Below, piece by piece: positions 32,594 to 56,349 of a DNA stretch of 64,000 bases (its first letter is position 1; the number at the start of each line of letters is the position of its first letter). This DNA comes from a virus (taxonomy: Duplodnaviria; Heunggongvirae; Uroviricota; Caudoviricetes): positions 170,764-234,763 of the IMG/VR virus record IMGVR_UViG_3300029288_000055; one strand, 5' to 3'. The position numbers and the translations under genes are program-made. The notes below the pieces were generated by a model that had not been told where the DNA came from, made no database searches, and saw only the letters and a list, made by a program, of their open reading frames with translations.

Positions 32594-32604
32594 CAAATTA
32601 AAAT

Positions 32605-33144: not shown

Positions 33145-33613
33145 TAAAAATCGCAGGTATGTACTGCAGGTTGGCGTTCTATCCAAAAGAACTAAAAGCA
33201 CAATTACCACTGAGGGCAGTTAATTCTGTACCCAAGAGCAATATCAGTTAGCAGTACACTATTGTTTCAAAAAATTAGAATATTTTGTAACTTTTTGGTT
33301 TTTTCTTCGTATAAAGAGTATTAATTTAATAAGAAAGGAGCAAGTCTTCAAAACACGAATTAAATACAGAGGATGTTGGTGGTGGAAAATTGTACATTAC
33401 AATTATTTTCATAAGAAACTTTTTAAAAATTTTTATGTACAAAAGAAAAAGAAACCATTTACCAATAGAGAAATTAAAAAATATGAACTATATAAAAAAT
33501 TCGATGATTTAATTACATTGAGACGAGTGGATTGGTTAAGAAAGTTTATATTTCTCATTGAGCCATAAATTTTCAGTATTTATTTGTAACATTTTTAATT
33601 AAAAATTATAATA

Positions 33614-34006
33614 ATGAAAAAAATATTATCATTACTTTTATTACTGGTATCCTTGACAGCTTTTTCACAGAGACATCAACACGAAAAATACTATCAGGAT
33701 AAGTTTGCTGAATTAATTTATGGAAGAACAGAAGTTGTTCTTGATGACAGGGCACGTGTTGATATTGTAACTGATACATTTGCAATTGAAGTTGATTTTG
33801 CACCTAAATGGGCAGAAAGTATCGGTCAATCTTTGTATTATGCTGAAAAACTTCACAAAAAAGCAGGTGTTTTATTGATAATAAAAGGAAATGACGATCA
33901 AAGATATACTGAAAGATTAATTACTATCGCAAAAAAATATAATATTACTATTTGGTTTATAGACTATACATCTGAAAAATGGAAGACGAAAAAATTTATA
34001 TTTTAA
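33614..34006 (+). CDS. signal-peptide protein with PD-(D/E)XK-like fold
   Basis: MKKILSLLLLLVSLTAFSQ; RVDIVTDTFAIEVDFAPKWAESIGQSLYYA. Confidence 0.55.
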   Translation: MKKILSLLLLLVSLTAFSQRHQHEKYYQDKFAELIYGRTEVVLDDRARVDIVTDTFAIEVDFAPKWAESIGQSLYYAEKLHKKAGVLLIIKGNDDQRYTERLITIAKKYNITIWFIDYTSEKWKTKKFIF

Positions 34007-34047
34007 TTGTTGTTTTTCTCATTGTAATATATTAAATTTGAGGCATT

Positions 34048-34761
34048 ATGTATATCATTGCAAAGAAAAAGGATTATTATGATGGTGTCGTTGGCACAAT
34101 GGGTGTTGACAAAACATTGGTCTATGAGCGTGAAACTCAAGAATTTGAAGGTGATGACATACCCGTAATATTTGAAAGAAAAAGAGGTTATTGGGGTATG
34201 AATCGTACAAAAACTCCTTTTCATCAAATGAATTATCATCAAATAAAAAAAGAATTTCGAAATGTTTGTGACGAGCACTCATATTTCATTATTGGATTTT
34301 GTGGCAAACTCTACATTGGTTGGAAACTTTACAGAGTAATAAATTCAAATGATGAAGTCAGCACAGAATTCACATATGATAATGAATATATGAAGAAAAT
34401 CTTAGAAGATAAAAGCTGGGATGGTACTCTTAGTGATAGCATTAACTACGTTCAGTCATTTAATGCACTTCAGATTTTTAGGGATTTAAAAAGTCCAGCT
34501 TTTGTGTATGACAGCGATTACGGTAGAACAAAACGTAATAATAATCATCATTCGAAATTCATTATCAATCCATTGTTGAAAAACTATGAATTTTTCAAGA
34601 TGTTTGACAGTTTTCAAGCATTTCAGGAAGTTTCGATGTTTATAGGTGGAGTACTTGGTAAAGGTGAAAAAGAAATAACTGAAGTTGCTGATAAATATAA
34701 GATTACACAACATGGTTTTAATAAATGGTCATTCAGAAAAGAACCAAAAATAAAGAAATAA
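34048..34761 (+). CDS. hypothetical phage protein
   Basis: 237 aa ORF, KDYYD...HGFNKWSFRK. Confidence 0.55.
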   Translation: MYIIAKKKDYYDGVVGTMGVDKTLVYERETQEFEGDDIPVIFERKRGYWGMNRTKTPFHQMNYHQIKKEFRNVCDEHSYFIIGFCGKLYIGWKLYRVINSNDEVSTEFTYDNEYMKKILEDKSWDGTLSDSINYVQSFNALQIFRDLKSPAFVYDSDYGRTKRNNNHHSKFIINPLLKNYEFFKMFDSFQAFQEVSMFIGGVLGKGEKEITEVADKYKITQHGFNKWSFRKEPKIKK

Positions 34762-34762
34762 T

Positions 34763-36155
34763 TATGAGAAAAGAAAATAGAGATGCATTAATTGAGGCAT
34801 TGCAAACACATTTGGATACCAGAGATAAAAGGTTTATGTTTTTGAAAATAGAATTTAAAGATTTTGTTTCTCGAATAAACCTTGAAGGTTCTGCACATGA
34901 TACTGCTTGGAATATTTATTCTGAATTTGAAAAGAATCAAATGTTGGGTTCTTTAATGGCATGTATAAACCATGTTTTCGATACTGAATTATATTTGGAT
35001 ATTATTAAAAAACGAAACGTATGAAAGTAAAAATTGGTGATAAAATCGTTGATGCTGAAAATGAACCAATTATGTTGATTTTCAGTGATGAAAAAGAAAG
35101 AAAAGCAGTAGCTAAAAACATAAAAGATATGGCAACTCAAGCATTAAAATACTGTACATTTCCAAATGAAATGCTCGCAGCAGATGTGGTAAAATTTATG
35201 AAAACAGAATGAAAAAATCAATTGCAGAAAAATATAAAGACAGAAAGGTTAATCCAAAGTACTATCAGACAATTAAAATAAGTGGTGGTATAGAAGGCGA
35301 ACCAAAAACACTAACCAGAAAAGAGTTTCAAGAGGGTAAACAGGGTATAGTTTGGGCAGACAATGAAACAGGTAAACTCGTGTTTGAAGATGAAGAAAAA
35401 CCAATTGGATTAATAGAAGGCATAAGGCAATATGAAGCCAACAAGCCACCAGTAAGACTTGAATCAGAACTTAATAAGGCATATAAAGGACAAAACAATA
35501 TGACAATATATGGTGGCTTTGAGTTCATTGAAAAATTAAGAAAATTGTTACCAAAGAAATATTTTAAATAACATGACAAATTCAGGTGAAGATATGAAAA
35601 AGATGCTGGAAAGAATACAGCGTGAACAAACAGAAAGAATGAAAAAAATTAATGAAAGGGTTTGTGGTTCAGTAAAAAATCCTTACGTACCCACTACAAC
35701 AGCTTCTTTTCTCAATCCACAAAGAAATTCAAATGATATGTTTGAGCAACTGGCAAAAGAAAATAAAAAATTAACAGAAGAAAAAATTAAATTGAACCTT
35801 AAAATATTACAATTGGAAAAAGAAAAATATGAACTTATGGAAAATTACGCAAAACTTAAGTCATATATTGAAGCCAATAAAGGTCAATTTTGGACTGATT
35901 TAAATAAAAACATTAAAAGTATTTATCAAAGAATAATTAACTGGTTTAATACCTGACAGTATGAAAAGGTTTAATGTAGCAAAATTTGAAATCGAAGAAC
36001 GATTGGCACATATAGATTATACTGGTGATATTTCTGATATTGGCAACGAAATTGGTATTATTATTGGTAAATATATTGACAAAGAAAACACTGTTGAAGA
36101 TTTTATTCGTGGTTTAAAACACGGAATATCATTAACTGATGGCACACACGCTTAA
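34763..36155 (+). other. run of five small hypothetical CDSs (34763, 35021, 35209, 35573, 35961)
   Basis: Tightly coupled or overlapping ORFs on the + strand. Confidence 0.55.
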
Positions 36156-36219
36156 GGTCAAAATTTAAATAAACATTAAATAATTAATTTTTTAATGTTT
36201 GTGGTTCTTTAAAAATATC

Positions 36220-36583
36220 GGGGATGACTTGGCTTTGACTGAATGGTCAGACTGGTAACGTAAGCAAGTAGTAGTTGAATCAGACTACTTTAAAAAGGTT
36301 CAAAACAATAGATGAAGACATAATGTCTATCCCAACTTCTCTCACGAGAGGTAAAAGCGTTTTTGTAAGAAGTGCAGAACTTCAAATCGCTGCGTAAGCA
36401 AGGGACACGAAAAAATTTGCACAAAAGTTCCTAACTTGAAGGGAAGGTAAACAAATTCAAGACAGTTTTGTAGTTATTCTGGAATAATACAACTAATATT
36501 TCGCTGGCTTAGAAAAACCAGATAAACTTGTAGAAAACTTATTACTCGCATTCAAGACGGGGGTTCAACTCCCCCCATCTCCA
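36220..36583 (+). ncRNA. ssrA: tmRNA
   Basis: 5' GGGGATGACTTGGCTTTGAC, 3' GACGGGGGTTCAACTCCCCCCATCTCCA, G3:U70, internal tag ORF ending ...LQIAA-stop at 36397. Confidence 0.92.
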
Positions 36584-36598
36584 CTAATTTGAATTATT

Positions 36599-37021
36599 AT
36601 GGAAAATTATAATTGGGAAAAAACTGGTATGTTAGAAGGATTAACGGGTAATACTCGTGAAACCGTTATAAAACTTTTTAAAGAAATTGACTTCAAATCA
36701 ATACCAGAAATTAAAGATTCTGTTGGTGTAGACACACTCATTTGTCCAGTAATAAGACGAATAGTTTCAGTAATCACGCCTGATAATTTACTGGTTCAAA
36801 ACAGTATCATTAAAGATCATTCAAGAGAAATTACAGAAGAAGACGTGCTTCCATTGATTGATGTAAAAGAAATAACAGAACTATTGATTGAATATGTTCG
36901 TGTTTTTATTCCATACGCAGAAAAATATTTACCAGACCTTGACGCACAAGCGGAAATGTGCTTATTGTTTTGTGATAATTATGTAATGAAACTGATTGGT
37001 AGAACTGGAAAATGGAAATAA
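36599..37021 (+). CDS. small paralog of the major capsid N-terminal region
   Basis: NWEKTGMLEGLTGNTRE...CPVIRRI versus MCP RWEKIGLLEGLEGNVKE...FPVIRRV. Confidence 0.7.
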   Translation: MENYNWEKTGMLEGLTGNTRETVIKLFKEIDFKSIPEIKDSVGVDTLICPVIRRIVSVITPDNLLVQNSIIKDHSREITEEDVLPLIDVKEITELLIEYVRVFIPYAEKYLPDLDAQAEMCLLFCDNYVMKLIGRTGKWK

Positions 37022-37023
37022 TT

Positions 37024-37454
37024 ATGAAAGAGAATCAATATCAAAAATCAGAAAGATTACTTAAAAAATGGTTTGATTCTGATGATGCTAAAATCTATTT
37101 TGAAAAAGAACGAAAAAACAAGAGTTTAAGCTCAAACGTTTTGCTCGTTTTGAAAAGTGGCTGGAAAATAATGATTTTGAAGCACTAATGTATCGTTTAA
37201 TTCTTGAACATGGTGAAAATTATCGTGAAAAATGTTATCATAAAGGTTATGAACCATACCCAAACAATAAATTATCATTTCTTATTGATTATGTATCAGA
37301 AAGTCTTGAACCAATAAGTGTACCACAACTTGAAAATATGTTTGGAACAAGTATTTGGTTTTTTAAAGGATATTATTTTAGGCTTATGTACGGACAGGGA
37401 ACTGTTTTTGATTTATATAATGGTGGCGATTTTAAACATTTATTAAGCGCATGA
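37024..37454 (+). CDS. hypothetical protein, apparently split by a -1 frameshift near 37113-37118
   Basis: Frame starting at 37024 continues plausibly into the frame of ORF 37188 if one A is added to the A6 tract. Confidence 0.35.
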
Positions 37455-37759
37455 CAACTTACAATAAACTGGTTAGAGACAAGATACTTAAAATAATTAA
37501 AAAGTCTGGTTCAGGTTATAAGTATCATATAGCAAAAGACGACACAGAATTTCTTGAAAAACTTTATGAAAAACTTCAGGAAGAAATTACTGAATTTAAA
37601 GAAAAACCAAGTGTAGATGAATTTGTAGATATGTTAGAAGTATTGGAAGCTATAGCAAAATATTATAAATTTAAATTGAATGATATTAAAACTATAAAAA
37701 CCAAGAAAAAAATAGATCGTGGTGGATTTAATAACAGAATAATACTTGAAGAATCATGA
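37451..37759 (+). CDS. MazG-like/PRA-PH-like NTP pyrophosphohydrolase
   Basis: YNKLVRDKI, KLQEEITEF, EFVDMLEV, KKIDRGGF. Confidence 0.75.
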   Translation: MTTYNKLVRDKILKIIKKSGSGYKYHIAKDDTEFLEKLYEKLQEEITEFKEKPSVDEFVDMLEVLEAIAKYYKFKLNDIKTIKTKKKIDRGGFNNRIILEES

Positions 37760-37921
37760 CAACAACAGAAAAAATTATTACCGTAGTACTTGAAGAAGTA
37801 AATGGCTACACTAAAGAAGAAGCAGAAAAATATGCAAAAGATTGTGAAGGAAGTATTACGTGGGAAAGAATTGATGCAATTGTAAATAAAGCAATTAAGG
37901 AAGCAAAAAAGAAATAACAAT

Positions 37922-38007
37922 GGCGTAGTGATGGAACTGGTAGACATGTAGGTCTTAAAAACCTATGGGCAGTAATGTCCGTGTGGGTTCGACTCCCATC
38001 TTCGCTA
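37922..38007 (+). tRNA. tRNA-Leu(TAA)
   Basis: taggt-cttaaaa-accta, long variable arm, A73. Confidence 0.88.
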
Positions 38008-38029
38008 CTATTTATATAAAAATAAAATC

Positions 38030-38490
38030 ATGAAAAAATCAAGCATACCTATTGATATTCTTTATGAAGAATGTCTTAAAGCAGTAAGAAAAGAAATTCG
38101 AAAGGATTGCTATCAGGAAGCAAAAGAAATTATTCGATTGGCTTCGGATGAAGATCGTAAAGAATTTCTTAAATATTTCAAAGAAGACAAAGGCAATATT
38201 TGTTGTTTAGTTCTTGATAGAATAAAACGTGATCTAATTACTGCAGGAAAACTTGAAGCAAATGATAATGATAATTTCGGTAAACCACTTATGTTATGAG
38301 TATATTGTTTAGAAATTGGCTGGAAGAAGGATATTATGAAGAAGATTCTTGGGGTAATCTAACACGAATAGAAGACCCTGACAGAATTTTTCAGGCACAA
38401 AAAGAAGGAACACTATATCATAATGATGGTATGGCAACCACTCAAGTATATTTGGGTGATAAACTTGATTTAAATGGCGAAAGTGATTAA
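38030..38490 (+). other. two small hypothetical CDSs (38030-38299, 38296-38490)
   Basis: Overlapping ATGA coupling. Confidence 0.5.
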
Positions 38491-38603
38491 GGGTAAAAAG
38501 CCAATACCGCAAGAAGATGATTGTCATTGTGGCAACCCTCTTAGAGTAAATGACCCTGCAAGAAAAAAAATTATCAGGGTCATAAAGAAAAAATGATTTA
38601 CCC

Positions 38604-38685
38604 CCTCATGTGGTGGAACTGGTAGACACGCACGCCTCAAAAGCGTGTGCCGTAAGGCATGTCGGTTCGAGTCCGACCATGAGGA
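38604..38685 (+). tRNA. tRNA-Leu(CAA)
   Basis: cctcatg/catgagg, cacgc-ctcaaaa-gcgtg, long variable arm. Confidence 0.92.
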
Positions 38686-38725
38686 CAATTGAATAATTAT
38701 GAGTATTTATTTAAAACTGTAAACT

Positions 38726-38780
38726 ATGAAAAGACCTTGGATGTATTTCTTGTAACTTGCTCTAATGCGAGTACAAGAAA
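38726..38780 (+). promoter_or_regulatory. micro-uORF MKRPWMYFL with a hairpin occluding the next start
   Basis: uORF 38726-38755; stem tttcttgta-a-cttgc/gcgag-tacaagaaa ends immediately before ATG 38781. Confidence 0.5.
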
Positions 38781-39077
38781 ATGAAAGCAAAATCAATTGA
38801 ACAAACATCCACAAATCGTGGAGAATTTAATCGTGCATACAAGCACTATTTAGAAAAAAAAGGCAAGATTCACTGTTCATATTGTGCTTATCACCGTTGT
38901 GAAAACGGTTGCGGGACAAAAATGTACGGTAGTATTGGTAGTGAAAGAATGAGATATCCTAACTGGAAACTTGTTTCAAAGCAACCAAAACAGTGGATGG
39001 AAAAACCCATCAAAAAAAGAGTTAAATATTATGGTGGGTATCAAAGAACATATGTTGAGATTACATTCTCAACATAA
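38781..39077 (+). CDS. small basic protein with CxxCxxHxC motif
   Basis: HCSYCAYHRCEN. Confidence 0.55.
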   Translation: MKAKSIEQTSTNRGEFNRAYKHYLEKKGKIHCSYCAYHRCENGCGTKMYGSIGSERMRYPNWKLVSKQPKQWMEKPIKKRVKYYGGYQRTYVEITFST

Positions 39078-39080
39078 TAT

Positions 39081-39152
39081 TGCGACTTGGTATAATGGTT
39101 AGAACGTCTCTCTCATAAGGAGCAGATACCGGTTCGATTCTGGTAGTCGCAA
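39081..39152 (+). tRNA. tRNA-Met(CAT); Ile2 not excluded
   Basis: tgcgact/agtcgca, loop ctcataa. Confidence 0.8.
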
Positions 39153-39153
39153 C

Positions 39154-40513: not shown

Positions 40514-41532
40514 AAGAAAAAAACGGCTTATTAATTAATGAAAATTACTGGCGTAATATGTCGCCAATGGAATTAGAAAATTTTGCTCAGAAAATTTTTA
40601 TACATTACAGAGAAAATGGTTTTCCTTATTATCCAACAGATATTGAAATAAGACAAAAAGATTTTGAGCAGTTAATGAATTATGATTTCAAAGCGTTATT
40701 TGAAAATAATATAATAAAGCAATCGATGCATGGTCTTGGACTTGCGTGGTCATATTTTCCACACTCATTCAATGTCAGGTCAAATGATAAAATGACTCCA
40801 TATGAAGCATTTATGGATGATGAAATTTTCATAAAAGTCATCAAAAAACGTTTACAGATGGGTACATATATATCAGACTCTGGCATAAGAAAGATGTTGA
40901 AAATATTTACGGGCGTACAGGGAGTATCGAATTTCAGACCAACAGCAGCAGCATGCATTTATAATACGTTTGCTAAAGACGGTGTAGTTTGGGATATGTC
41001 AGGTGGTTGGGGTGGAAGATTGCTGGGGGCAATTGCTGGTGGGGTTCAGAACTATATTACGACTGAACCTTCAGAGTTAACACATAAAGGCTTGACAGAA
41101 ATGGCTTATTGTTTTTGTCCCAAAGGCATGGATTACATGATCTTGAAAATGGGAAGTGAAGTATTTAGACCAGACAAGAACAGCTTAGATTTGTGTTTCA
41201 CATCACCGCCATATTTTGATCTTGAAAAATATAGTGAAGAACCTTCACAGAGCTATATCAAATTTAATACGAAAGATACATGGGTTGAAGGATTTTTGAG
41301 ACCAACATTTAAAAATTCTTATTATGGATTAAAACAAGGTGGATATATGTTGATTAATATTGCTGATGTAAAAGGCAAACACAATGTTAATTTGGAATGG
41401 GAAACTATTATAACTGCAGAAAGTATTGGTTTTACACATGAAAACACGCTTCAATTAGCACTTTCAAATGTAAATTTGCGTGATAAAGGAAAGAAGTTTA
41501 AGTATGAACCTATTTATGTATTTAAGAAATGA
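40510..41532 (+). CDS. DNA amino-methyltransferase (SPPY type)
   Basis: WDMSGGWGGRLLG motif I; FTSPPYFDLEKYS motif IV. Confidence 0.8.
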   Translation: MKEKNGLLINENYWRNMSPMELENFAQKIFIHYRENGFPYYPTDIEIRQKDFEQLMNYDFKALFENNIIKQSMHGLGLAWSYFPHSFNVRSNDKMTPYEAFMDDEIFIKVIKKRLQMGTYISDSGIRKMLKIFTGVQGVSNFRPTAAACIYNTFAKDGVVWDMSGGWGGRLLGAIAGGVQNYITTEPSELTHKGLTEMAYCFCPKGMDYMILKMGSEVFRPDKNSLDLCFTSPPYFDLEKYSEEPSQSYIKFNTKDTWVEGFLRPTFKNSYYGLKQGGYMLINIADVKGKHNVNLEWETIITAESIGFTHENTLQLALSNVNLRDKGKKFKYEPIYVFKK

Positions 41533-42614
41533 AAATGTTAGAAAAAATTGATTGGAAGGTTCTCTGCACATATGTAGAAAATAGCCTCATTATTGCAAAC
41601 AAACATCCAGAATTGGATATTTGGATACTTAATTATTCTCCAAAAGTTCAGTCAAAAAAGTTCTGGGATGAATATACCTTATCTTGTCGTGGATTGGTAA
41701 TTGATGCTGAAGGTAACATCTTAGCTCGTCCATTCGAAAAGTTCATGAATTACGAAGAATATGACCCATCAGAAATTGACTGGTCAAAGGACTTTGATGT
41801 ATTCGAAAAAATGGATGGTTCATTGATTATTATATTTTATTATGAACCAAGAATGAAATGGATAGTAGCTTCCAGAGGGTCATTTATTTCTGAACAAGCA
41901 CTTGAAGCACAAAAAATGATTACAGTTACAGATTATGGCAAACTGGATATTGAATACACATATCTATTTGAAGCAATTTATCCAGAAAACCGAATCGTTG
42001 TTAATTATGGTAATAGAAGAGAACTTGTGTTACTTACCAAAATTAATACAAATACTGGTGCTGAAATAAATAACGATGAATTGGTTAACAAGTATTCAAA
42101 GCATTTTACAGTTGTGAAGAAATTTCAACTTAAATCATTTGATGAATTAAAACAATTAATAAAAAATGGTGAAGATAATAGTGAAGGTTTTGTTATTAGA
42201 TTCTCTGATGGCTTAAGATTAAAAATGAAATTTGCTGAATACTGCAGATTGCATGCAATATTAACAAATGTTTCTAATTTAACTGTTTGGGAACATTTGA
42301 TAAATAATTATGATTTTGATGCATTATATGACAGAGTTCCAGATGAATTTTACAACTGGCTAAAAAGAACAATAAAAGCAATACAGTCAGAATTCAATGA
42401 GATCGAAAGAAAAGCATTGAAAGAATTCATTAGAATTTACTATGTAAATGGAATTACTGTTCGTAAGGATTTCGCAATGGAAGCGATAAAAACAGAATAC
42501 CAGTCAATATTATTTAAATTGTACGACAAAAGATCATATGATGAAATCATTTGGAAATTAGTGCGACCAGTTTACAGTAAGCCGTTTCGAGACGGTTTTG
42601 AATATAGCATATAA
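41529..42614 (+). CDS. RNA ligase, T4 Rnl1-like
   Basis: CRGLV, RPFEKFMN, EKMDGSL, SRGSF, FEAIYPENRIVV, EGFV, KMK. Confidence 0.88.
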   Translation: MKMLEKIDWKVLCTYVENSLIIANKHPELDIWILNYSPKVQSKKFWDEYTLSCRGLVIDAEGNILARPFEKFMNYEEYDPSEIDWSKDFDVFEKMDGSLIIIFYYEPRMKWIVASRGSFISEQALEAQKMITVTDYGKLDIEYTYLFEAIYPENRIVVNYGNRRELVLLTKINTNTGAEINNDELVNKYSKHFTVVKKFQLKSFDELKQLIKNGEDNSEGFVIRFSDGLRLKMKFAEYCRLHAILTNVSNLTVWEHLINNYDFDALYDRVPDEFYNWLKRTIKAIQSEFNEIERKALKEFIRIYYVNGITVRKDFAMEAIKTEYQSILFKLYDKRSYDEIIWKLVRPVYSKPFRDGFEYSI

Positions 42615-44010: not shown

Positions 44011-44042
44011 TTTGGAAATGTCGTATTTATAAAATACATTTG
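44011..44042 (+). promoter_or_regulatory. Bacteroidota primary-sigma promoter, tRNA operon C
   Basis: TTTG(44011)-N20-TACATTTG(44035). Confidence 0.78.
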
Positions 44043-44080: not shown

Positions 44081-44173
44081 ATGAGAACATTTGGTACATA
44101 TTATTACGGTAAAAAATCTTATAAGAAACAGCTTATAGGAATCGGGAATACTATGACCAAAGGTAAAATATAA
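44081..44173 (+). CDS. leader peptide C, MRTFGTYYYGKKSYKKQLIGIGNTMTKGKI
   Basis: YYYGKKSYKK cluster. Confidence 0.85.
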   Translation: MRTFGTYYYGKKSYKKQLIGIGNTMTKGKI

Positions 44174-44202
44174 CTTTCGTACTTTTTTTCATAATTAAGA
44201 CT

Positions 44203-44234
44203 AACCCGATTCGCAAGATCGGGTTTTTTGTTTT
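44203..44234 (+). terminator. attenuator terminator C
   Basis: aacccgat-tcgcaag-atcgggtt plus T-tract; 5' arm complementary to leader gaatcggg (44139-44146). Confidence 0.85.
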
Positions 44235-44369
44235 GCATAAAAACGTATATTGTTGCATAAAAACTCTTAGAATATGAAAAACAGGTATAAAAAGGCATAT
44301 TTCATGAAAAACGTTTATTACCCGTGAAAAACGTTTAAAAAACAGTATGTTTCATGAAAAACGGGTTTT

Positions 44370-44442
44370 GCGCTCGTAACTCAGTTGGTAGAGTAACGGA
44401 CCTTTAATCCGTGAGTCGTGGGTTCGACCCCCACCGGGCGCA
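44370..44442 (+). tRNA. tRNA-Lys(TTT), C33
   Basis: gcgctcg/cgggcgc, acgga-cctttaa-tccgt. Confidence 0.88.
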
Positions 44443-44499
44443 CTTAAGGTATAGTTTAGGTATTTTCTGTATCCATATTAACTGAAATATCCACAAGTT

Positions 44500-44570
44500 G
44501 TACCCGTAGCAAAGGGGATATGCCCTTGGCTTTTAACCAAGTGACGTAGGTTCGATTCCTACCGGGTACA
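44500..44570 (+). tRNA. tRNA-Lys(TTT)
   Basis: gtacccg/cgggtac, cttgg-cttttaa-ccaag. Confidence 0.88.
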
Positions 44571-44576
44571 CAAATT

Positions 44577-44657
44577 GGGTACGTTGAGCAATTGGTTGGC
44601 TCGCCTGACTGTAGATCAGGTTCTTCGGACGTAGGGGTTCGAGTCCCTTCGTACCCA
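44577..44657 (+). tRNA. tRNA-Tyr(GTA), G37
   Basis: gggtacg/cgtaccc, cctga-ctgtaga-tcagg, variable arm. Confidence 0.88.
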
Positions 44658-44663
44658 CAAATA

Positions 44664-44739
44664 GACTCCGTAGCTTAATTGGTGAAGCTGCACTCCCTTA
44701 AAGTGAGGATTATGGGTTCGAGTCCCATCGGGGTCACCA
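44664..44739 (+). tRNA. tRNA-Lys(CTT), C33
   Basis: gactccg/cggggtc, cact-cccttaa-agtg, CCA. Confidence 0.85.
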
Positions 44740-44750
44740 AATTTTTTATT

Positions 44751-44987
44751 ATGGAAACAATTAAAACAATTGTAAACGGAACACAAGCAACTTTAAGCCA
44801 CGTATGTAATGGCAAAGCATGCTATAAAATTATGACTGCAGATCACATATATCAACTTGAAATCAATTTGATGGATTCTGAATGGAAGGATGTATACGTA
44901 TATCCTGAATACAAGACGATTACCTTAATGCGTTGGATACGCAAGGGCATCGAGAATGATGACGGTTCATTCATTATGATGAAATAA
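44751..44987 (+). CDS. hypothetical protein
   Basis: METIKTIV... ORF between tRNAs. Confidence 0.55.
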   Translation: METIKTIVNGTQATLSHVCNGKACYKIMTADHIYQLEINLMDSEWKDVYVYPEYKTITLMRWIRKGIENDDGSFIMMK

Positions 44988-44993
44988 TATGCT

Positions 44994-45075
44994 GGGTAGG
45001 ATGGTAAGTGGGCGAAATCAATGGTCTGTAAAACCCCCGCCTTTGGCTATGCAGGTTCGAATCCTGCCCTACCCA
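44994..45075 (+). tRNA. tRNA-Tyr(GTA), weak anticodon stem
   Basis: gggtagg/cctaccc, ggt-ctgtaaa-acc, variable arm. Confidence 0.75.
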
Positions 45076-45223
45076 CACTAATCTTACAAAATTTATTTTT
45101 TGTAAGATTTTTTATTTCAGTCACTTATAATTTTTATTTAGTCTAAATAAAAATAACTCTTGCATTTTTAATTAAAAGTATTTATATTTACAAAAATAAT
45201 TTTATGCTTAAGTATTATGAAAA

Positions 45224-46282: not shown

Positions 46283-48835
46283 ATGACAGATAAAAATCTT
46301 AAAAGTTTTCCCAAACAAGAAGTCGAAAAATCAACATTACAATATTTTAAAGGCGATGAATTAGCAGCACATGTTTGGATGAAAAAATATTGCTTAAAAG
46401 ACGAAAAAAATTATTACGAACTCAACCCAGACGATATGCATCATCGTATTGCAAAAGAAATTGCAAGAATAGAAGCAAAATATCCCAATCCAATCCCCGA
46501 AGAAGAAGTTTACAATACAATAAAAAATTTTGAACGAATCATACCACAAGGTTCACCAATGTCAGGTATTGGCAATAATCTTCAGGTAGTTTCTCTTAGT
46601 AATTGTTTTGTTGTTGGTAATGACGGCAATGGTGATAGTTATGGCGGGATTATTAAAATCGATCAAGAAATAGCACAATTAGAAAAAAGACGTGGTGGCG
46701 TAGGTACTGATATGTCATTCGTTAGACCTTTTGGTAGTCCTGTAAAGAATAGTGCAATTACCAGTACTGGCGTTGTGCCTTTCATGGAAAGATATTCAAA
46801 TACTACAAAAGAAGTGGCACAAGATGGTCGCAGGGGTGCATTAATGCTTAGTATTTCAATTAAACATCCAGATTCAGAAAGATTTATTGATGCGAAATTT
46901 GAACAGGGTAAAGTTACTGGTGCAAACGTATCAGTAAAAATTGATGATGATTTTATGAATTCTGCAATACAGGGAACTACATATTTTCAACAATATCCAA
47001 TTATTGGTACACCAAAAATGAGCAAAGATATTGATGCACAAAAACTTTGGAAAAAAATTATATTTAATGCTTGGCGTTCAGCCGAACCCGGTGTGCTGTT
47101 CTGGGATGCTATCATGCGTGAGAGTGTGCCCGATTGTTATGCAGACTTAGGATTTAAAACCTTATCAACAAATCCTTGTGGTGAAATACCTTTATGCCCC
47201 GATGATAGTTGTCGATTACTTTCACTTAATTTATTTGGTTATGTGAAATATCCATTTACAATAAATGCATATTTTGATTGGGAATTGTTCAAGAAAGATG
47301 TACAGATTGCTATGCGTTATATGGATGATATTGTCGATCTTGAAATAGAAAAAATTGATGCAATACTTGTTAAAATATATTCAGACCCAGAAGATGAATT
47401 TCTCAAACTATATGAAATAAAACTTTGGGAAAGAATTAAAGATAAAACAATTAGAGGTCGTAGAACTGGATTGGGAGTAACTGCAGAAGGTGACATGCTT
47501 GCAGCAATTGGACTTCGTTATGGTACAGATGAAGCCACCAATTTTAGTGAAAAAGTTCATAACACACTTAAATTAAATGCTTATCGTTCAAGTGTTATAA
47601 TGGCACAAGAACGTGGAGCATTTCCGATATATGACGCTGAAAGAGAAATAAATAATCCTTTCATTACAAGAATATTGAAAGAGGATGAAGTATTATATGC
47701 CGAAATGGTTACTTATGGTCGTAGAAATATTGCTTTATTGACCATAGCACCAACAGGTACTGCCAGTTTAATGACACAAACTACTTCAGGTATTGAACCT
47801 TGTTTTTCACCTGTATATAAAAGACGTAGAAAAATTAATCCACAAGAAAAAGATGTAAGAATTGATTTTGTGGATGACGAAGGTATTGCTTGGCAAGAGT
47901 ATCCAGTATTTCATCATAAATTTGAAATGTGGCTTGAAATAAATGGATATGACGCAAATGTTGTCAAAAGTATGAGTGATGAACAACGCAATGAAATCGT
48001 TAAGAAATCTCCATATTATAAAGCAACTTCTGAAGACGTTGATTGGGTAAAAAAAGTTGAAATGCAAGGTCGTATACAGAAACAAGTAGATCATAGTATA
48101 TCAGTAACCGTTAATCTGCCAAAAGATATTACAGAAGAAATGGTTGCAAAAGTATATGAAACTGGCTGGAAAAGTGGTTGTAAAGGCATTACTGTTTATC
48201 GTGATGGCTCACGTAGTGGAGTTCTGGTTGCGGATGACTCAAAAAAAGATGCAGAATTTCATGAAAATCATGCACCGAAACGTCCAAAAAGACTTAAAGG
48301 TGAAATTCATAGATTTCAAAATAATTTAGAAAAATGGATTGCTGTTGTAGGCATGAAAGACGGCAGACCATATGAAATCTTTACTGGTAAACTTGAAAAT
48401 GGATTAAGTAAATTACCACCACATGTAAAAGAATGTGAAGTAGTTAAAAATCTTATTGACGGTCTTGATGCAGAAGGTAAACCCACCAAAATCAAGAGGT
48501 ATGATATTGAATATATTGATATTGATGGAGTAAAACAAATTCATACTGGATTGAATCATGCATTTAATCCTGAATTTTGGAATTATGCTAAATTGATCTC
48601 AGGTATTATGAGACATGGAATGCCAATTGTTAAACTTTATGAATTAATTGATTCATTAAACTTTAAAGAAGATTATATCAACACTTGGAAGAATGGTGTT
48701 GCACGTGTGATCAAAAGATATGTTAAAGACGGAGAAAAGGGCAAAGGCAAGTGTCCTGAATGCGGTAGTGATCATCTTGAATTCAAAGAAGGTTGTTTAA
48801 CATGCATGGCTTGTGGAAATAGTAAATGTGGATAA
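46283..48835 (+). CDS. nrdJ: class II (adenosylcobalamin-dependent) ribonucleotide reductase
   Basis: SLSNCF, TNPCGEIPL, TIAPTGT, GCKGITVYRDGSR, C-terminal CPECG...CLTCMACGNSKCG; no beta subunit nearby. Confidence 0.9.
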   Translation: MTDKNLKSFPKQEVEKSTLQYFKGDELAAHVWMKKYCLKDEKNYYELNPDDMHHRIAKEIARIEAKYPNPIPEEEVYNTIKNFERIIPQGSPMSGIGNNLQVVSLSNCFVVGNDGNGDSYGGIIKIDQEIAQLEKRRGGVGTDMSFVRPFGSPVKNSAITSTGVVPFMERYSNTTKEVAQDGRRGALMLSISIKHPDSERFIDAKFEQGKVTGANVSVKIDDDFMNSAIQGTTYFQQYPIIGTPKMSKDIDAQKLWKKIIFNAWRSAEPGVLFWDAIMRESVPDCYADLGFKTLSTNPCGEIPLCPDDSCRLLSLNLFGYVKYPFTINAYFDWELFKKDVQIAMRYMDDIVDLEIEKIDAILVKIYSDPEDEFLKLYEIKLWERIKDKTIRGRRTGLGVTAEGDMLAAIGLRYGTDEATNFSEKVHNTLKLNAYRSSVIMAQERGAFPIYDAEREINNPFITRILKEDEVLYAEMVTYGRRNIALLTIAPTGTASLMTQTTSGIEPCFSPVYKRRRKINPQEKDVRIDFVDDEGIAWQEYPVFHHKFEMWLEINGYDANVVKSMSDEQRNEIVKKSPYYKATSEDVDWVKKVEMQGRIQKQVDHSISVTVNLPKDITEEMVAKVYETGWKSGCKGITVYRDGSRSGVLVADDSKKDAEFHENHAPKRPKRLKGEIHRFQNNLEKWIAVVGMKDGRPYEIFTGKLENGLSKLPPHVKECEVVKNLIDGLDAEGKPTKIKRYDIEYIDIDGVKQIHTGLNHAFNPEFWNYAKLISGIMRHGMPIVKLYELIDSLNFKEDYINTWKNGVARVIKRYVKDGEKGKGKCPECGSDHLEFKEGCLTCMACGNSKCG

Positions 48836-48837
48836 TT

Positions 48838-49310
48838 ATGCCAAAGACAAAACTTAGTGACATATTAAAACATGGGAAAAATTTTAAAGTAAAAATATTA
48901 AACCCTGATGACCCCGAAGTAATTGAAATGTTTCGCAAAGTAAAAGAAGAACAAGAAAAATGCTTGGCGAGAAAGAAAATTGATTGGGAAAAAATGCGTA
49001 ATACTGTGATTAATATTTAATTTGTGAGTATTTATACGAAAGTTCTTTGAAATTATAAAATATTGTAATATATTTGCTTCTTAATATCATTTCTATGATC
49101 ATACTGGAAAGTAAACTTGTTAGAAAAGATTCACCTGCACATAGTGAATATCAAAACTATGGGTATGTTGACGGATACTTTCTAACCATTCATGATTTGG
49201 CTGCTCTGGTCAGAGATTTTCAAGTCGATTGTTTTGATGGATTTGTCAGCAATGATCATTCTTACATTGAAGAATGGTTAAAGAAGCATAACCAAATTGT
49301 AAAAAAATAA
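48838..49310 (+). other. two small hypothetical CDSs (48838-49020, 49096-49310)
   Basis: ORF track, with ATG starts chosen by eye. Confidence 0.45.
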
Positions 49311-49331
49311 CTGTAATATAAATTAAATTGT

Positions 49332-51572
49332 ATGAAAAAAAATGTAAAATTCGATGAAAACTATTATCTCATTTCTCAAGAAGCTAATAGTACCGTAACT
49401 GTAGAAGTTGCAAAAAAAACAAACCACATTTTCGTGGTAGACGTATCTGGCTCAATGTCATGGGAACTCCCAAAAATTAGAACACAATTGAAAAATAAAC
49501 TCTCCAATATTATGAAGGAAGGTGATACTATTACTATTGTGTGGTTCTCAGGCAGCAGGGATGCTGGAATCCTCAAAGAAGAAGTTGAAGTAAAATCACT
49601 TAAAACTTTATCCGACCTACATGATGCAATTGACAAATGGCTTCGTCCAGTTGGCTTAACTGCATTCTTAAAACCACTTGAACTCGTTAAAGAAGTTATT
49701 GGTAGAATCAGAAAGAACAGACCTGACAGTGTGTTCTCAATGATATTTCTTACTGATGGTTGCAACAATGATTGTTCTTGGAATGATGTAATTAAAACGC
49801 TCAAAGGACTTGAAACTGAGATTGCTTCTTCAACATTTGTTGAATACGGTTATTATGCCGATTCACGTGCATTAACCCAAATGGCAAGTGTTCTTGGTGG
49901 AGAAAAAATCAGTTGTGATGGTTTCGATGATTTCGAACCAATGTTTGATGCTAAAATTTCTTCAAGCGTTTATGGTGGTAAAAAAGTCGTTGTTAATATT
50001 ACCGACAAATACCTTTATGATTTCGCATTCAGTGTTGGTAAAGACGGTAGTGTATTGCTTTACAACATTCAGGATGGTAAGATCATGGTTGGTAGTGATG
50101 TTAAAGAAGTTTATTTCTTCAGTCCCAATGGAGTTGGTGGTGGAACAATCATTGATGGTGCACTTTACGCAGCAATATATGTTCTTTCAGATAAACTCAT
50201 GAATGACGATGCGGAAAAAGTCTTTTATGCACTTGGCGATAATCATTATTATAGGATGTTAGCTAATGCATTTGGAAAGCAGAAACTCAATGCATTTAAA
50301 GCAGCTATCAAAGAATGTGTTGCTGATGTATCAAAAAGATTTCCTGACGGTGGAAGAGCAGCAATTCAAAAAGTTCCCGATGATGCATATTGCTTAATGA
50401 ATCTTATTGAAGACTTGGGTAATCTGGAAGGTTGTTTATTCTATAAAGGACATTCAGATTTCAATTATAATCTTATTGGCAGAAAACGTGTTGCAAGGGG
50501 TGAAAATTTATCAGAAGCTGATAAAAAAAGATTATCTGAAGCTAAGAATGTTGAAGAAATTAGTAAGATCACCGAAGAACTTAAACAAAAGAATGTTGAA
50601 ATTAGTTTTGTAGATTCTGACCCAAACAGGGGTTATCCGCTTACTGACTTAGTATGGAATGAAAAACGTGCAAACCTTTCTATTCGTATTTACATTGAAG
50701 GTGAAGCAATTACACCTAAAAACAAATTCAGTATTGAAAAAGTTGCTTCTTTCAGGTACAAAACATACACTCTTATCAAAGACGGTATCGTAAATATTAA
50801 AAAACTTCCAGTAAGTTTTTCGCCAGAATTAGATCAATTATTGGTGAAATATAATGTTAGTCACACCATAGATGTGGTTAACAAAGTGGTTGTTATTGAT
50901 CTTACCAGTTTGCCACTTATTAACAGGGGTATGGTAAAAAGTATTTCAGCTAAAGGTCTTGCAATTCAAGAGTGGGAACTTCAGAAACTTCAGGCAGACA
51001 AAAAGGTTTACGATTATTTCAGAAAATCATTGTTTCCAAAAGAAAGTAAGTCTTTTGTTGAACTGCTTGGTCAGGAAGCTGCAGATTGGCTTAAAACAAT
51101 CGGAATTACTGACTACAATGGTTTTACACCATTGACAGATGCTGAAGAATCAACTGACTTTTACTTGTCAGTCAATCTTGAAACTAAAATTAAAGGTTTC
51201 TCTTCATTACCAAAGGTTGAAGATGTTATCGCTAAACTTAAAAGCGGTACTTCATTAAAACCAAGTGAAGCTATTATGTCTGATGCAGTTAAAAAATATC
51301 AAGCACAACTTGAATCTGAAATGTATCAATCATTAAATGAAGAACAGCAGAAGGGTGTGTTGAAAACATATCTTATCACCAAGTCTGACATTCTGAACAA
51401 AAAGAGAAGAAAAGCATTACAGGAGATCGCACAGATCAAATTCTCGCTTATTCTTTCTAAGAAATGGTTTACTGAATTTAAAACATTTGATGAAAATAAA
51501 CTAAGTCTTAAACTTGACGGTCAGGATTTAGAATTTACTTTCGATTTAAGTGAAAAAGAAGAAAAAATCTAA
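49332..51572 (+). CDS. large vWA domain protein
   Basis: VVDVSGSM MIDAS, IFLTDG. Confidence 0.75.
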   Translation: MKKNVKFDENYYLISQEANSTVTVEVAKKTNHIFVVDVSGSMSWELPKIRTQLKNKLSNIMKEGDTITIVWFSGSRDAGILKEEVEVKSLKTLSDLHDAIDKWLRPVGLTAFLKPLELVKEVIGRIRKNRPDSVFSMIFLTDGCNNDCSWNDVIKTLKGLETEIASSTFVEYGYYADSRALTQMASVLGGEKISCDGFDDFEPMFDAKISSSVYGGKKVVVNITDKYLYDFAFSVGKDGSVLLYNIQDGKIMVGSDVKEVYFFSPNGVGGGTIIDGALYAAIYVLSDKLMNDDAEKVFYALGDNHYYRMLANAFGKQKLNAFKAAIKECVADVSKRFPDGGRAAIQKVPDDAYCLMNLIEDLGNLEGCLFYKGHSDFNYNLIGRKRVARGENLSEADKKRLSEAKNVEEISKITEELKQKNVEISFVDSDPNRGYPLTDLVWNEKRANLSIRIYIEGEAITPKNKFSIEKVASFRYKTYTLIKDGIVNIKKLPVSFSPELDQLLVKYNVSHTIDVVNKVVVIDLTSLPLINRGMVKSISAKGLAIQEWELQKLQADKKVYDYFRKSLFPKESKSFVELLGQEAADWLKTIGITDYNGFTPLTDAEESTDFYLSVNLETKIKGFSSLPKVEDVIAKLKSGTSLKPSEAIMSDAVKKYQAQLESEMYQSLNEEQQKGVLKTYLITKSDILNKKRRKALQEIAQIKFSLILSKKWFTEFKTFDENKLSLKLDGQDLEFTFDLSEKEEKI

Positions 51573-51593
51573 CTATTTTTGCAACTTAATATT

Positions 51594-51622
51594 AAAACCC
51601 ATCAATTCAGATGGGTTTTTTT
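51594..51622 (+). terminator. intrinsic terminator
   Basis: aaaacccatc/gatgggtttt plus T-tract. Confidence 0.75.
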
Positions 51623-51657
51623 GTTATGAAAACTATTTATAAAAAATATATACTCAT

Positions 51658-54600
51658 ATGAGTTTATTATCCGAAAGTAAACGCTTTAATGATTTCACGC
51701 CAGAAGAGAAACGTCAAATATTTAATGTTTTCACACAATCATATGTAAAGGCAACTGGTGTTTCATGGGATGAAAGAAAATTTTATAGCAGGGCGGGAGA
51801 ATGGATATTTTTTGGCGACCCATTAGGATTTGTTACAGTCAGACCACAAAAAAGTGGGTTTTATAAGCTAACTGGTGTTGCTGGTAACCCAAAATCCATA
51901 TTAAGGAGCTTACAAGAACTCAATAGTACCAATTACCCAATATGGGGCATGCTTACAAAAGAACTTGCAAACATTTTAGTTAAAAGATATGGCTTCAGAA
52001 TGCCAAATAGACTTGAAGGATTTGTAATTGGTAAATTAATAACAAAGAATGTATTTGGAAATGTTGAATATACTCGTAATCCTGACGGTAGTTTAACATT
52101 TAAATATGGTGATGTCGGTGAAGCCACAAAAGTTTTCGTTGGCAATAGAGAATACTATAAAAAGATCAGACGTGATGCACTTAAAAGGGTATTTTCTCCA
52201 AAACAAGCAGTAAGCGAAGATGTTCTTACCGAAAAAAGAGCAATTGAACATTATTTTGAAGATAGTTTTAAGGCAGTATCAGAATATATAAGAAGATATG
52301 GTTATGAACACACATATGTTTCATTCAGACAAACAGCAAACACCACATTTATTAATCGTAGTAATAAATATAATACTCCGACAGGTTTTTATATGTATCC
52401 TTTGAAAAATTATCAAGAAAAAATTGCACAAAGTATTGACATGCAGAGTTTTATGAAAGCATTTCCATATACTCCTGAAAGTAAATTTGCTTTTCTTTTT
52501 ACAATAACAAATACTGAAAATTTCTTATCTTCATTAAATATTAATGTTGAAAAAATTCATAGATATGTAAAAAAAATTAAAGAATTATATGGCGAAAAAA
52601 AACCTGCAATCAAAACATTGTGTGATTTATATTTTACTACCGAAGGTTTTACACCAAGAGGAGGAAGCGATTATCAATATAAAAATGAATTTCAAAAATT
52701 TTGGTTATTTTTATATGAAATTGCATTTGAATTAAGAGCAAACAACACAACATACAATTCTGACAGAAGTTCAAGTCATTATAAAGAATATCCTTCAACA
52801 ATTACTATAATTGCAGACGATATTGGTCTTGAAGGATTTATTGATGATGCATGCACATCAACCATACATTCTGGTGAACCATGTCAAGGGGTTTTACTTA
52901 GTAATTTAAGAAAAAGTATTGGTAATTTGAAAATAGTACCAATATATCAAAAATATGATGCTCCATTAAATATTGATAATCCAAATGCGCCAACAGTTGA
53001 CCCATCAGAATATAAAAACAAATATGAAAAATATTTGAAAGGTAAATTAAATGCTAAAGAAGTTTATATTGCCGATAATAATTATCAATTAGCAATAAAA
53101 AATCGTTTACCATTTATTGTTATTGCAAATAGTTATACACCATATTATGTTGACAGGGATGGAAATAAAACTGTAAGAGGTCTTGATACAACAAAAATAC
53201 TTTCTAATGACCCACATGAGGATACATATGATGATACTTTAAAACAAAAACGTACTGCATATATTAATTCTTTATTGAATACAAAATATGATGAAGTGCG
53301 CCCATTTGGAAAATATGGTGGAGATGTTGCATTTGCAGTTCATGATAACGGAAGTTATGCATTTATTAATAAAGAAGGCAAACCAGATATTACAGGTGTT
53401 GATATTCTTAAAATTGGTGACGGTAAAACACGTGCAGTATATTTTAATCAATTACTTGGCAAAGAAATATTTGATCAAATTAATAGTTTTAGTGATTATG
53501 GCGGAGAAATTGCACTCGCACATCCACTTTCTGGTGGTCAATCATACTTTATTGATAAAATGGGTAATCCTGATATAATAAATGTAGATGTTACCAAAGT
53601 TAGTGATAGCAATACACGTGCAATAATTATAAACCAAAAATTAGGAAAAAAATATTATTATTCAATTGGTACATATAATAAATATGGTCAAGGTATTGCA
53701 GTTGCAACAAAAAATAATGGTGATAAAGTCTTTATTAATATTGAAGGTAAACCAAGTATTGCCAAGGTTAATATAAATAATATTGATGACGGTGATTTAC
53801 GTGCAATATATCTTAATCAGAGATTACATAAAAAAATCTTCAGTTTTATTGGTATATTTGATAAATTTGGTACAGGAATAGCATTAGGAAGATATATAGA
53901 TGGTACTTTAAAATTTGTAAATGCTTTAGGACAACCTGATCTTGAACATGTAGATTTTGATGCAATTGATGATACTAACACTCGTGCATTATATATAAAT
54001 CAAAAATATGGTACTGATTTTAAATCGGTTGGTATATTTGATAAAATTGGTGATGATGTAGCTCCTGCTGTTCGTGATGATGGTACAATCGAATTTATTA
54101 ATAGAGAAGGTAAACCAAGCATGGGTAATGTTGATATTAACAGAATTGACGATAGTCATGTTCGTGCACAATTTATAAATAAATTATTAGGTACTAATTA
54201 CACGCATGTTACAAAATTTGGTGAATTTGGTGGCGATATTGCACTTGCAGGTAATCGTGACACTAATACTCATGAATTTATTAATAGAGAAGGTAAACCA
54301 GATGTATCAACAGTTGATTTAGATAAAATCGGAGATAGAACAACAAGAGCAGTATATTTTAATCAAAAATATGGTACAGATTATAATGGTGTTTATGATT
54401 TTGGTACATACGGTAATGATGTCGCATTAGCATATAATAATGAAATAGGAAAAGTTTTTATTAACAGAGAAGGAATGCCAGATACTTCTGGTATAGAAGA
54501 AAAATATCTTGACGAACCACCTGTACATGCAGCATATTATAATCAAAAATTTGGCACACATTATGCTGAAATTAGTCCGTTTGGAGTATATGGCAAAGAT

Positions 54601-55287: not shown

Positions 55288-55422
55288 ATGAAAACGTACA
55301 GGAAAATATCAGAAGATTCTACATCGACCTCAAGTCGCAATGGAAATGGTATATTCTGTTCAATTTTTACAGGCAGAAATAATGCAGATACGGGTTCTGG
55401 TTTTAAAGACATTGATTTGTAA
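55288..55422 (+). CDS. leader peptide D, MKTYRKISEDSTSTSSRNGNGIFCSIFTGRNNADTGSGFKDIDL
   Basis: Residues 11-32 are exclusively S/T/R/N/G/I/F/C. Confidence 0.85.
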   Translation: MKTYRKISEDSTSTSSRNGNGIFCSIFTGRNNADTGSGFKDIDL

Positions 55423-55441
55423 TTTTTAAAACTAATATAAG

Positions 55442-55473
55442 AAGAACCCGTATCGCAAGATTCGGGTTTTTTT
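55442..55473 (+). terminator. attenuator terminator D
   Basis: aagaacccgtatc-gcaa-gattcgggttttt plus T-tract; 5' arm perfectly complementary to leader gatacgggttct (55387-55398). Confidence 0.88.
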
Positions 55474-55486
55474 GTTCTTTACATAT

Positions 55487-55557
55487 GTCGGGATAGTTCA
55501 GGGGTAGAACGTCTGTGTGGTATTCAGGCAACATCGGTTCGAATCCGATTCTCGGCT
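55487..55557 (+). tRNA. tRNA-Thr(GGT)
   Basis: gtcggga/tctcggc, loop gtggtat. Confidence 0.78.
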
Positions 55558-55649
55558 CAAAAATATAACTCTTACAGGTTATAAACACAAAACATAACCT
55601 TTGCAGGTTATGCAAACTGTAAGACGATCTTTGACATGTTGGAATTTCT

Positions 55650-55730
55650 GAAGGGTTGCCTGAGTGGTTGAAAGGGACGGTCTGCAAAACCGTTAGGAAA
55701 CTCACGTGGGTTCGAATCCCACACCCTTCT
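55650..55730 (+). tRNA. tRNA-Cys(GCA), extended variable arm
   Basis: gaagggt/acccttc, acggt-ctgcaaa-accgt, U73. Confidence 0.85.
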
Positions 55731-55784
55731 CGAAAATTATTTTTGCATAAAGGACTGAAATTCGGTACTTTGTGCAAAAAATCT

Positions 55785-55859
55785 GTTTCGGTAGTGCAAT
55801 AATGGTAAAACGACAGTCTGTTAAACTGCAAGATGTAGGTTCGACTCCTACCCGAAACG
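55785..55859 (+). tRNA. tRNA-Asn(GTT)
   Basis: gtttcgg/ccgaaac, cagt-ctgttaa-actg, G73. Confidence 0.8.
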
Positions 55860-55865
55860 CAATAT

Positions 55866-55942
55866 TGGGACGTATTCCCTCTGTCTGATAAGCAGTTGAA
55901 AGGATAATTGGTCACATGTGGGTTCAATTCCCACCTTCCCAA
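55866..55942 (+). tRNA. tRNA-Ile(GAT)-like, lacking a D arm
   Basis: tgggacg/cttccca, ctgt-ctgataa-gcag, intact T arm, only about 7 nt between acceptor and anticodon stems. Confidence 0.55.
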
Positions 55943-55958
55943 CATAAAAATTTAAAAT

Positions 55959-56031
55959 GGGCGTATCGTCTAACTGGTTAGGATGTGTCTCTGATAAGGA
56001 TACGATGAAGGTTCAAGACCTTCTATGCCCA
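55959..56031 (+). tRNA. tRNA-Ile(GAT)
   Basis: gggcgta/tatgccc, tgtct-ctgataa-ggata. Confidence 0.82.
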
Positions 56032-56158
56032 CAAATCGCAGACGTGCGATCTTATGTTGCAACATAAAACGATTACTTATTGTTAGCATAGCTGGCAATG
56101 CTGCTCTGTGAATGGGTGAAGGTGAGTTCAAGTCTCACAGGTAAGAGTCGTTTTGTAT

Positions 56159-56245
56159 GGAGAGTTGTCCGAGTGGTTGATGGTGGCAGTCTTGAAAACT
56201 GCTGGGCACGCAAGTGCCCCGTGGGTTCGAATCCTACACTCTCCG
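56159..56245 (+). tRNA. tRNA-Ser(TGA)
   Basis: ggagagt/actctcc, gcagt-cttgaaa-actgc, long arm, G73. Confidence 0.92.
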
Positions 56246-56349
56246 CAAATTACAAATGGGAAAGTAGTTAGCGGTACTTAGTTGAGATAGTACTAAGTCG
56301 AGATGCACTGACCACTATTATCGAGTATAATAAAAAGTTTGTAATATTT

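Follow-up and report, generated by a model that had tools for sequence, protein, structure and literature searches.

Module C is a Lys/Tyr tRNA unit in a 64,000-nucleotide stretch of phage DNA (the window; IMG/VR record IMGVR_UViG_3300029288_000055, positions 170,764 to 234,763), in which a promoter, a short leader open reading frame (ORF) and an intrinsic terminator precede a run of tRNA genes (Table 1). The tRNA genes were called by ARAGORN and Rfam, in agreement with an earlier, sequence-based note that had listed three Lys and two Tyr tRNAs; its further statement that the leader precedes these tRNAs only does not hold, since the gene of a 77-residue protein is found inside the unit. This protein has no match in Pfam, PHROG, NCBIfam or Atlas, and its 188 homologues are almost all unnamed or hypothetical. 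The last tRNA-Tyr is possibly decaying, as judged from its weak arms, and the AU-rich hairpin that follows it probably marks the end of the unit. Between the terminator and the first tRNA, an array of (A/G)T(A/G)AAAAAC motifs, the sole such cluster in the 363-kb contig, looks like a set of protein-binding sites on one helix face; it is present in some relatives and absent from many. A 17-codon Lys/Tyr-rich ORF (44274-44327) lies within the array. Upstream of module C, with one terminator and one gene in between, is the gene of an Rnl1-type RNA ligase.

Table 1. Features of module C, the upstream ligase gene and the sister modules (coordinates of the window).
Feature	Coordinates	Strand	Remarks
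Rnl1-type RNA ligase gene	41529-42614	+	PF09511 (E 8e-21), phrog_562
Composite promoter, presumed	44011-44042	+	Bacteroidota-type; TTTG (44011-44014), 20-nt spacer, TAnnTTTG (44035-44042)
Phage late-type motif GTATTTAT	44023-44030	+	Nested within the composite promoter
Leader ORF	44081-44173	+	30 residues; control codons Tyr7-Lys16 (44099-44128): AAA, AAG, TAT, TAC
Long leader hairpin (1:2, putative anti-antiterminator)	44090-44161	+	72 nt, -21.1 kcal/mol; sequesters 44139-44144
Antiterminator strand (segment 2), GAATCGGG	44139-44146	+	8/8 complement of the terminator left arm (44205-44212)
Intrinsic terminator (3:4 hairpin and U tract)	44203-44234	+	Hairpin 44203-44225, then T run; -11.4 kcal/mol
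(A/G)T(A/G)AAAAAC motifs	44236-44365		About six, 20 or 30 nt apart
tRNA-Lys(UUU)	44370-44443	+	C33 variant
tRNA-Lys(UUU)	44500-44571	+	U33, G31-C39
tRNA-Tyr(GUA)	44577-44658	+	G37
tRNA-Lys(CUU)	44664-44739	+	C33, U31-A39
77-residue conserved hypothetical protein gene	44754-44987	+	Inside the tRNA unit
tRNA-Tyr(GUA)	44994-45076	+	Weak D-arm and anticodon stem; Rfam 40.1 bits
AU-rich hairpin and T run	45080-45116	+	-11.5 kcal/mol
Sister module A	25019-26922		Pro/His/Gln
Sister module B	29390-39153		Asp/Glu/Val/Leu/Ala/Trp/Met
Sister module D	55288-60995		Thr/Cys/Asn/Ile/Ser/Phe/Gly/Arg

The contig that bears the window (C1) comprises 362,763 bases with a GC content of 30.5% and 56 clustered tRNA/tmRNA calls, and encodes a T4-like portal and large terminase; the remaining contigs of its genome bin have a higher GC content and a separate, dispersed tRNA set. 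As a search of C1 for an RNA polymerase beta subunit found none, and the portal and terminase are present, the contig is taken to be a jumbo phage that was binned with a bacterium, and use of the host enzyme, with intrinsic termination, is likely. The bin (G000) consists of this 363-kb contig and a small bacterial genome, of which contig C6 (60 kb, 29.9% GC, no tRNA) may be foreign too. No close cultured relative of the phage was found, with the best terminase match at 27% and DNA matches limited to single tRNAs. The host most likely belongs to the phylum Bacteroidota, as suggested by the phage ribonucleotide reductase, for which the best matches listed are all from Bacteroidota (61-63% identical), and by promoters that fit the consensus of this phylum. 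The promoter of module C, which we take to be one from the known Bacteroidota consensus, is conserved in the alignment of homologues. The late-type motif nested within it is found no more than 90 nt ahead of 54 of 317 genes of the phage, including those of the terminase and portal (about 1.4% expected), and is likewise nested in the host-type promoters of modules A and B, so that modules A-C may each possess a dual, host and late, promoter.

The arrangement of module C is preserved in related phages. Searches with two neighbouring proteins as queries uncovered a Lys/Tyr block at 16 further phage loci, and leader, antiterminator and terminator are intact in 15 of these. A DNA pattern search of viral contigs, with a pattern that held no tRNA information, matched 36 contigs, several of them near-duplicates or loci found earlier, in all of which the leader ORF is open and Lys/Tyr-rich (25 distinct peptides) and a terminator is conserved between the leader and the tRNA genes; the promoter was matched in 32. 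Lys and/or Tyr tRNAs stand behind the terminator in 35 of the 36, the remaining contig having 376 bases of room; one 'Leu' call proved on reading to be a C33 tRNA-Lys(CUU), and one 'Val' call an atypical 94-nt element. In the most distant relative with the pairing (G004, 58% terminase identity), a different, 21-codon Lys/Tyr leader precedes three Tyr and five Lys tRNAs, and module D is headed by a tRNA-Trp while its leader contains Trp, which argues that leader content follows tRNA content. In G003, the leader of module C is broken and tRNA-Tyr alone remains, neither tRNA-Lys nor Rnl1 being found in the record. The decayed module (L018, 9300-9720) keeps its promoter, a terminator with a mismatch and the one tRNA-Tyr, and a short stretch within it may be an insertion-sequence end, which it resembles.

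The Tyr and Lys codons that the earlier note had pointed out are indeed present at positions 7-16 of the leader, and the positions of the control region that do not specify Lys or Tyr are codons 2-6, 10 and 13. As Lys and Tyr codons are AT-rich, a run of this kind might be an accident of AT-rich DNA, ahead of a terminator that is leaky and constitutive or that is read through with the aid of a phage protein; translation would then not be sensed at all. Such a reading would fit the folding calculations, in which the completed terminator always wins at equilibrium, and the phased, potentially protein-binding repeats that follow the terminator in some relatives. Background rates argue against chance, however: Lys and Tyr together account for 13.3% of the phage proteome, yet not one of its 79,110 windows has 8 Lys or Tyr in 10 codons, and of 3,000 short ORFs on the contig a single one does, the module C leader itself. 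In addition, the leaders of the three sister modules match their own tRNA blocks using GC-richer codons, the ORF is open throughout the pattern-matched contigs and, as described below, the leader hairpin covaries, all of which makes a terminator indifferent to translation improbable.

The antiterminator was found where it had been claimed, 24 nt before the stop codon, and folding shows that the control codons pair with it in the 72-nt leader hairpin. A shorter hairpin (44117-44140), which had been put forward as overlapping the antiterminator, exists, but as the tip of this 72-nt stem rather than as the whole leader hairpin. When the long stem, taken from single-sequence folds, was counted on the alignment of 15 homologues (a procedure that favours the stem in a slid control), 89% of cells pair and 5 pairs (10 cells) are changed on both sides, a level of two-sided change that was reached by none of 500 shuffles, although related sequences inflate this test. 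RNAalifold recovered the tip hairpin and the terminator only. In each of the 13 homologues examined, the leader hairpin is stabler than its synonymous recodings (z -2.5 to -5.6) and, together with the compensatory changes, this modelled stability lends support to the suggestion that it acts as an anti-antiterminator. The antiterminator itself is invariant in the 15 homologues, even though the reading frame differs in L009 and L017 through a one-base deletion, and this retention of bases in a changed frame indicates selection on the RNA; since its pairs never vary in module C, they give no covariation signal of their own there.

The same alignment bears on an alternative in which the 30-residue peptide itself carries the function, for example as a small basic effector, and the RNA features have no part in it. 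Conservation of the peptide is good over its first two thirds, counted from the N-terminus, but the C-terminal part is frame-shifted in L009, L017 and L213 with the antiterminator bases unchanged, and the G004 peptide is different and shorter with the same composition and layout. A peptide effector is, in consequence, a very remote prospect.

To model the effect of translation, a mask of 27 nt stood for the ribosome, and the transcript was ended ahead of the right arm of the terminator. With the modelled ribosome at codons 2-16 the antiterminator forms (P >0.93), at codons 17-27 it is blocked, and for the leader of the window with no ribosome it forms with P 0.03. Under the same mask, the antiterminator of 15 homologues passes from free to blocked where the Lys/Tyr control run ends, or no more than about one codon away, and the model places the antiterminator just past the stretch covered by a ribosome at the last control codon. 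As codons 2-6 are not Lys or Tyr codons, some cross-talk from other amino acids is possible. The antiterminator can still form when the modelled ribosome has reached the stop codon (0.82), and with no ribosome it is hidden in only about half of the homologues, with values from 0 to 1. These two results, and the advantage of the finished terminator at equilibrium, imply that control must be co-transcriptional, which bears out, at the level of the model, the earlier proposal that control depends on coupling kinetics.

All features of leader-peptide attenuation that can be examined in sequence are present, namely a cognate-rich leader ORF, a terminator, an antiterminator exclusive with it and an overlapping 1:2 hairpin, and module C is very probably a ribosome-controlled transcription attenuator that sets the output of a Lys/Tyr tRNA operon. 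Host RNA polymerase would begin transcription near 44048. When Lys- and Tyr-tRNA are ample, the ribosome is expected to traverse the leader, cover the antiterminator at codons 17-27 and release, whereupon the long leader hairpin would refold over the antiterminator, the terminator would form and transcription would, according to the predicted folds, end at about 44230. When they are scarce, the ribosome would stall on codons 7-16, preventing formation of the leader hairpin, and 44139-44146 could capture the left arm of the terminator before the right arm is made, so that the tRNA genes are transcribed. The new Lys and Tyr tRNAs would then relieve the stall, giving negative feedback. Because such a sensor reads decoding speed, it would respond alike to nuclease cleavage, host tRNA decay and heavy demand.

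Module C appears to be one of four paralogous modules that share the 20 amino acids between them. The layout of promoter, leader, terminator and tRNA block recurs at 25019, 29390, 44081 and 55288 (modules A-D), the amino acids of the respective block are over-represented in the part of each leader before the antiterminator (P 5e-5, 3e-6, 3e-4 and 2e-5, respectively), and the four blocks together cover all 20 amino acids. In each module, 8-11 nt of the leader are exactly complementary to the left arm of the terminator, and antiterminator and terminator arm co-vary across the four. Modules A, B and D are also present in G001-G004. Module B contains, in addition, a phage tmRNA (window 36220-36586).

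The existence of four such modules invites an explanation in terms of supply and demand, in which they match the tRNA pool to the load of AT-rich late genes and the grouping of Lys with Tyr is an inherited partition that has no particular bearing on defence. Of the codons in the phage proteome, AAA is used most often (71 per 1000) and TAT ranks sixth (41 per 1000), and the late-type motif in the promoters of modules A-C points the same way. The partition also differs among unrelated phages: L072 (175 kb, 1779-15570) and L071 (195 kb, 581-19550), neither of which has a terminase match, contain three and two candidate leader-plus-terminator modules, respectively, in which Lys is grouped with Trp/Phe/Arg/Ile/Cys or with Pro/Thr/Arg/Glu/Val/Gln and Tyr codons lie in Leu/Ser-rich leaders. 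In Caulobacter phage CcrColossus, Lys stands beside Pro, Leu, His, Ala and Ser, without Tyr; as scans of the block show no leader or terminator ahead of it, this phage is usable for gene order only. Homeostasis of this kind leaves unexplained the linkage and co-loss of Rnl1, C33 beside a nuclease cut site and the strong divergence of anticodon stems between paralogous copies, and we consider it a possible but doubtful account of the module as a whole.

A different purpose, which leaves the attenuation mechanism as it is, was implied by the earlier description of a dedicated module for nuclease targets: Lys and Tyr would have been split off as the main targets of anticodon nucleases, and the module would be an inducible counter-defence. 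The nuclease targets that it cited are correct for E. coli. In this species PrrC, AriB and RorSlfn5 all cleave tRNA-Lys, and tRNA-Tyr is the target both of Septu, which cuts it, and of Eco7 PtuAB, which depletes it (PMC11555353, PMC11464382, PMC13056530, PMC13096335). However, tRNA is not a target of Eco4 PtuAB. Candidate nuclease genes do occur in Bacteroidota genomes (PtuB-like HNH genes in 9/151, DUF4435 genes in 4/151, AAA_13, RloC/PrrC-like, in 1/5). The Rnl1-type ligase is found upstream in nearly all relatives, the distant G004 included, and T4 Rnl1 repairs tRNA-Lys after PrrC has cut it 3' of U33 (PMC2610378); G003 lacks ligase, tRNA-Lys and intact leader together, and the Lys/Tyr pairing persists down to 58% terminase identity. 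Against this, the loss in G003 is a single event, synteny is also preserved for other neighbours such as the reductase. As a polynucleotide kinase partner, the contig offers one weak AAA_33 match at a great distance.

The tRNAs themselves give a similarly divided picture. Among distinct anticodon arms, a base other than U at position 33, beside the PrrC cut site, occurs in 10 of 46 for Lys and in 26 of 301 for other tRNAs (p 0.016, uncorrected for kinship), three U33/C33 twins share identical anticodon stems, and in five Bacteroidota genomes tRNA-Lys keeps U33 and C33 is absent. C33 is, however, found just as often in Glu(UUC), Val(UAC) and Asn and seldom in Tyr (2/28), and in the diversity of their anticodon stems the Lys and Tyr tRNAs are average (ranks 18 for Lys(UUU), 14 for Lys(CUU) and 11 for Tyr, of 27). 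A T5-type swap of the 31:39 pair was considered as a mark of PARIS resistance and rejected, as host tRNA-Lys of Bacteroidota already vary at this pair. The dedication claimed earlier is therefore supported only in part, equivalent modules existing for all 20 amino acids, stem diversity lying at the median and the candidate modules of L071 and L072 placing Lys and Tyr in separate blocks, while some Lys-specific signs, the Rnl1 linkage and C33, stand. Given also that an attenuator cannot tell cleavage from demand, and that AAA is so common, a module split off for defence is a credible idea that still falls short of probable; that counter-defence is one use of module C, mainly for Lys, is likely. 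The fuller proposal, that this phage family senses tRNA-cutting immunity of the host through a translated Lys/Tyr sensor and induces cleavage-resistant Lys/Tyr tRNAs, with a linked repair ligase in support, as a feedback-controlled counter-defence, is offered tentatively.

Among known systems, module C most resembles the multivalent attenuators of enterobacteria, such as thrL (Thr and Ile), pheL, hisL, trpL and the ilvGMEDA leader. Like the attenuators of amino-acid operons (background in PMC4833913), it combines a short leader ORF with cognate codons, exclusive 1:2, 2:3 and 3:4 helices and a terminator, and two amino acids are read by one leader, as in thrL. It differs from them in that phage tRNA genes rather than enzymes would be regulated, five tRNAs and one hypothetical protein, with no biosynthetic enzyme or synthetase, lying downstream, so that the output is tRNA and the feedback direct; in that the 1:2 hairpin spans almost the whole ORF; and in that four paralogous modules serve the whole code. 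In the pheST attenuator of E. coli, which controls Phe-tRNA synthetase, ribosome stalling senses charged tRNA. That system likewise governs a part of the translation machinery, but it concerns a synthetase, a bacterial chromosome and one amino acid. T-box riboswitches also set a terminator/antiterminator choice by tRNA status, but bind tRNA directly without translation, and the conserved leader ORF, together with an Rfam search of the leader in which no family, including the T-box with its stem I, specifier loop and T-box bulge, reached threshold, rules out this identity.

Phage tRNAs are established as counter-defence: tRNA-Tyr of T5 and SP15 counters retron Eco7, tRNA-Lys counters PrrC and PARIS (PMC11555353, PMC11464382), amplification of tRNA-Tyr in T6, by SegB, counters Septu (PMC13096335), and T4 has the Pnk/Rnl1 repair pathway (PMC2610378). 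Module C shares with these systems phage-encoded Lys and Tyr tRNAs, the anticodon arms of which may be altered, and a nearby Rnl1-type ligase; in the known cases dosage is raised by a strong promoter or gene amplification, whereas module C would use an attenuator, in what is most likely a Bacteroidota host. Attenuation goes unmentioned in PMC11555353, PMC13056530 and PMC10264068, and no report of attenuation of phage or other tRNA genes was found in a literature that covered few subscription journals, so that novelty is unproven; module C would represent classical attenuation applied to tRNA genes, a use for which we found no published precedent. The presence of tRNA genes in large phages has long called for an explanation, codon supply and evasion of defence being the chief contenders, and an attenuator makes the matter measurable, as the condition that induces read-through is the one to which the tRNAs respond. 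Attenuation, so far a feature of enzyme operons, would also be extended to tRNA genes; cleavage of Lys/Tyr tRNAs could be followed with a small, genetically encoded reporter; and there would be reason to suppose that attenuation operates in Bacteroidota while a phage infects them.

Several further observations were made in the course of the analysis. ORFs of 190-250 residues, rich in Cys and probably encoding homing endonucleases, lie among the Lys/Tyr tRNAs in module C of L005, L008, L009, L017 and L019. A short Thr/Ala/Gly-rich leader and a hairpin precede Gly, Ala and Thr tRNAs in L042 (about 7000-8700), and a compact 14-tRNA array, upstream of which no leader ORF or terminator was seen, is found in the chromosome of a cultured Flavobacteriaceae, Seonamhaeicola sp. 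MEBiC1930 (L185/L186, about 1,558,000-1,559,300). A tRNA with a CUA anticodon, a possible amber suppressor, is located just outside the window (C1 237313-237385), and CUA tRNAs that resemble it were found in G001, G002, G004 and G005. Finally, the large terminase gene is in two or three pieces in G002 (225215-228863) and G003 (47773-51998), probably owing to introns or inteins.
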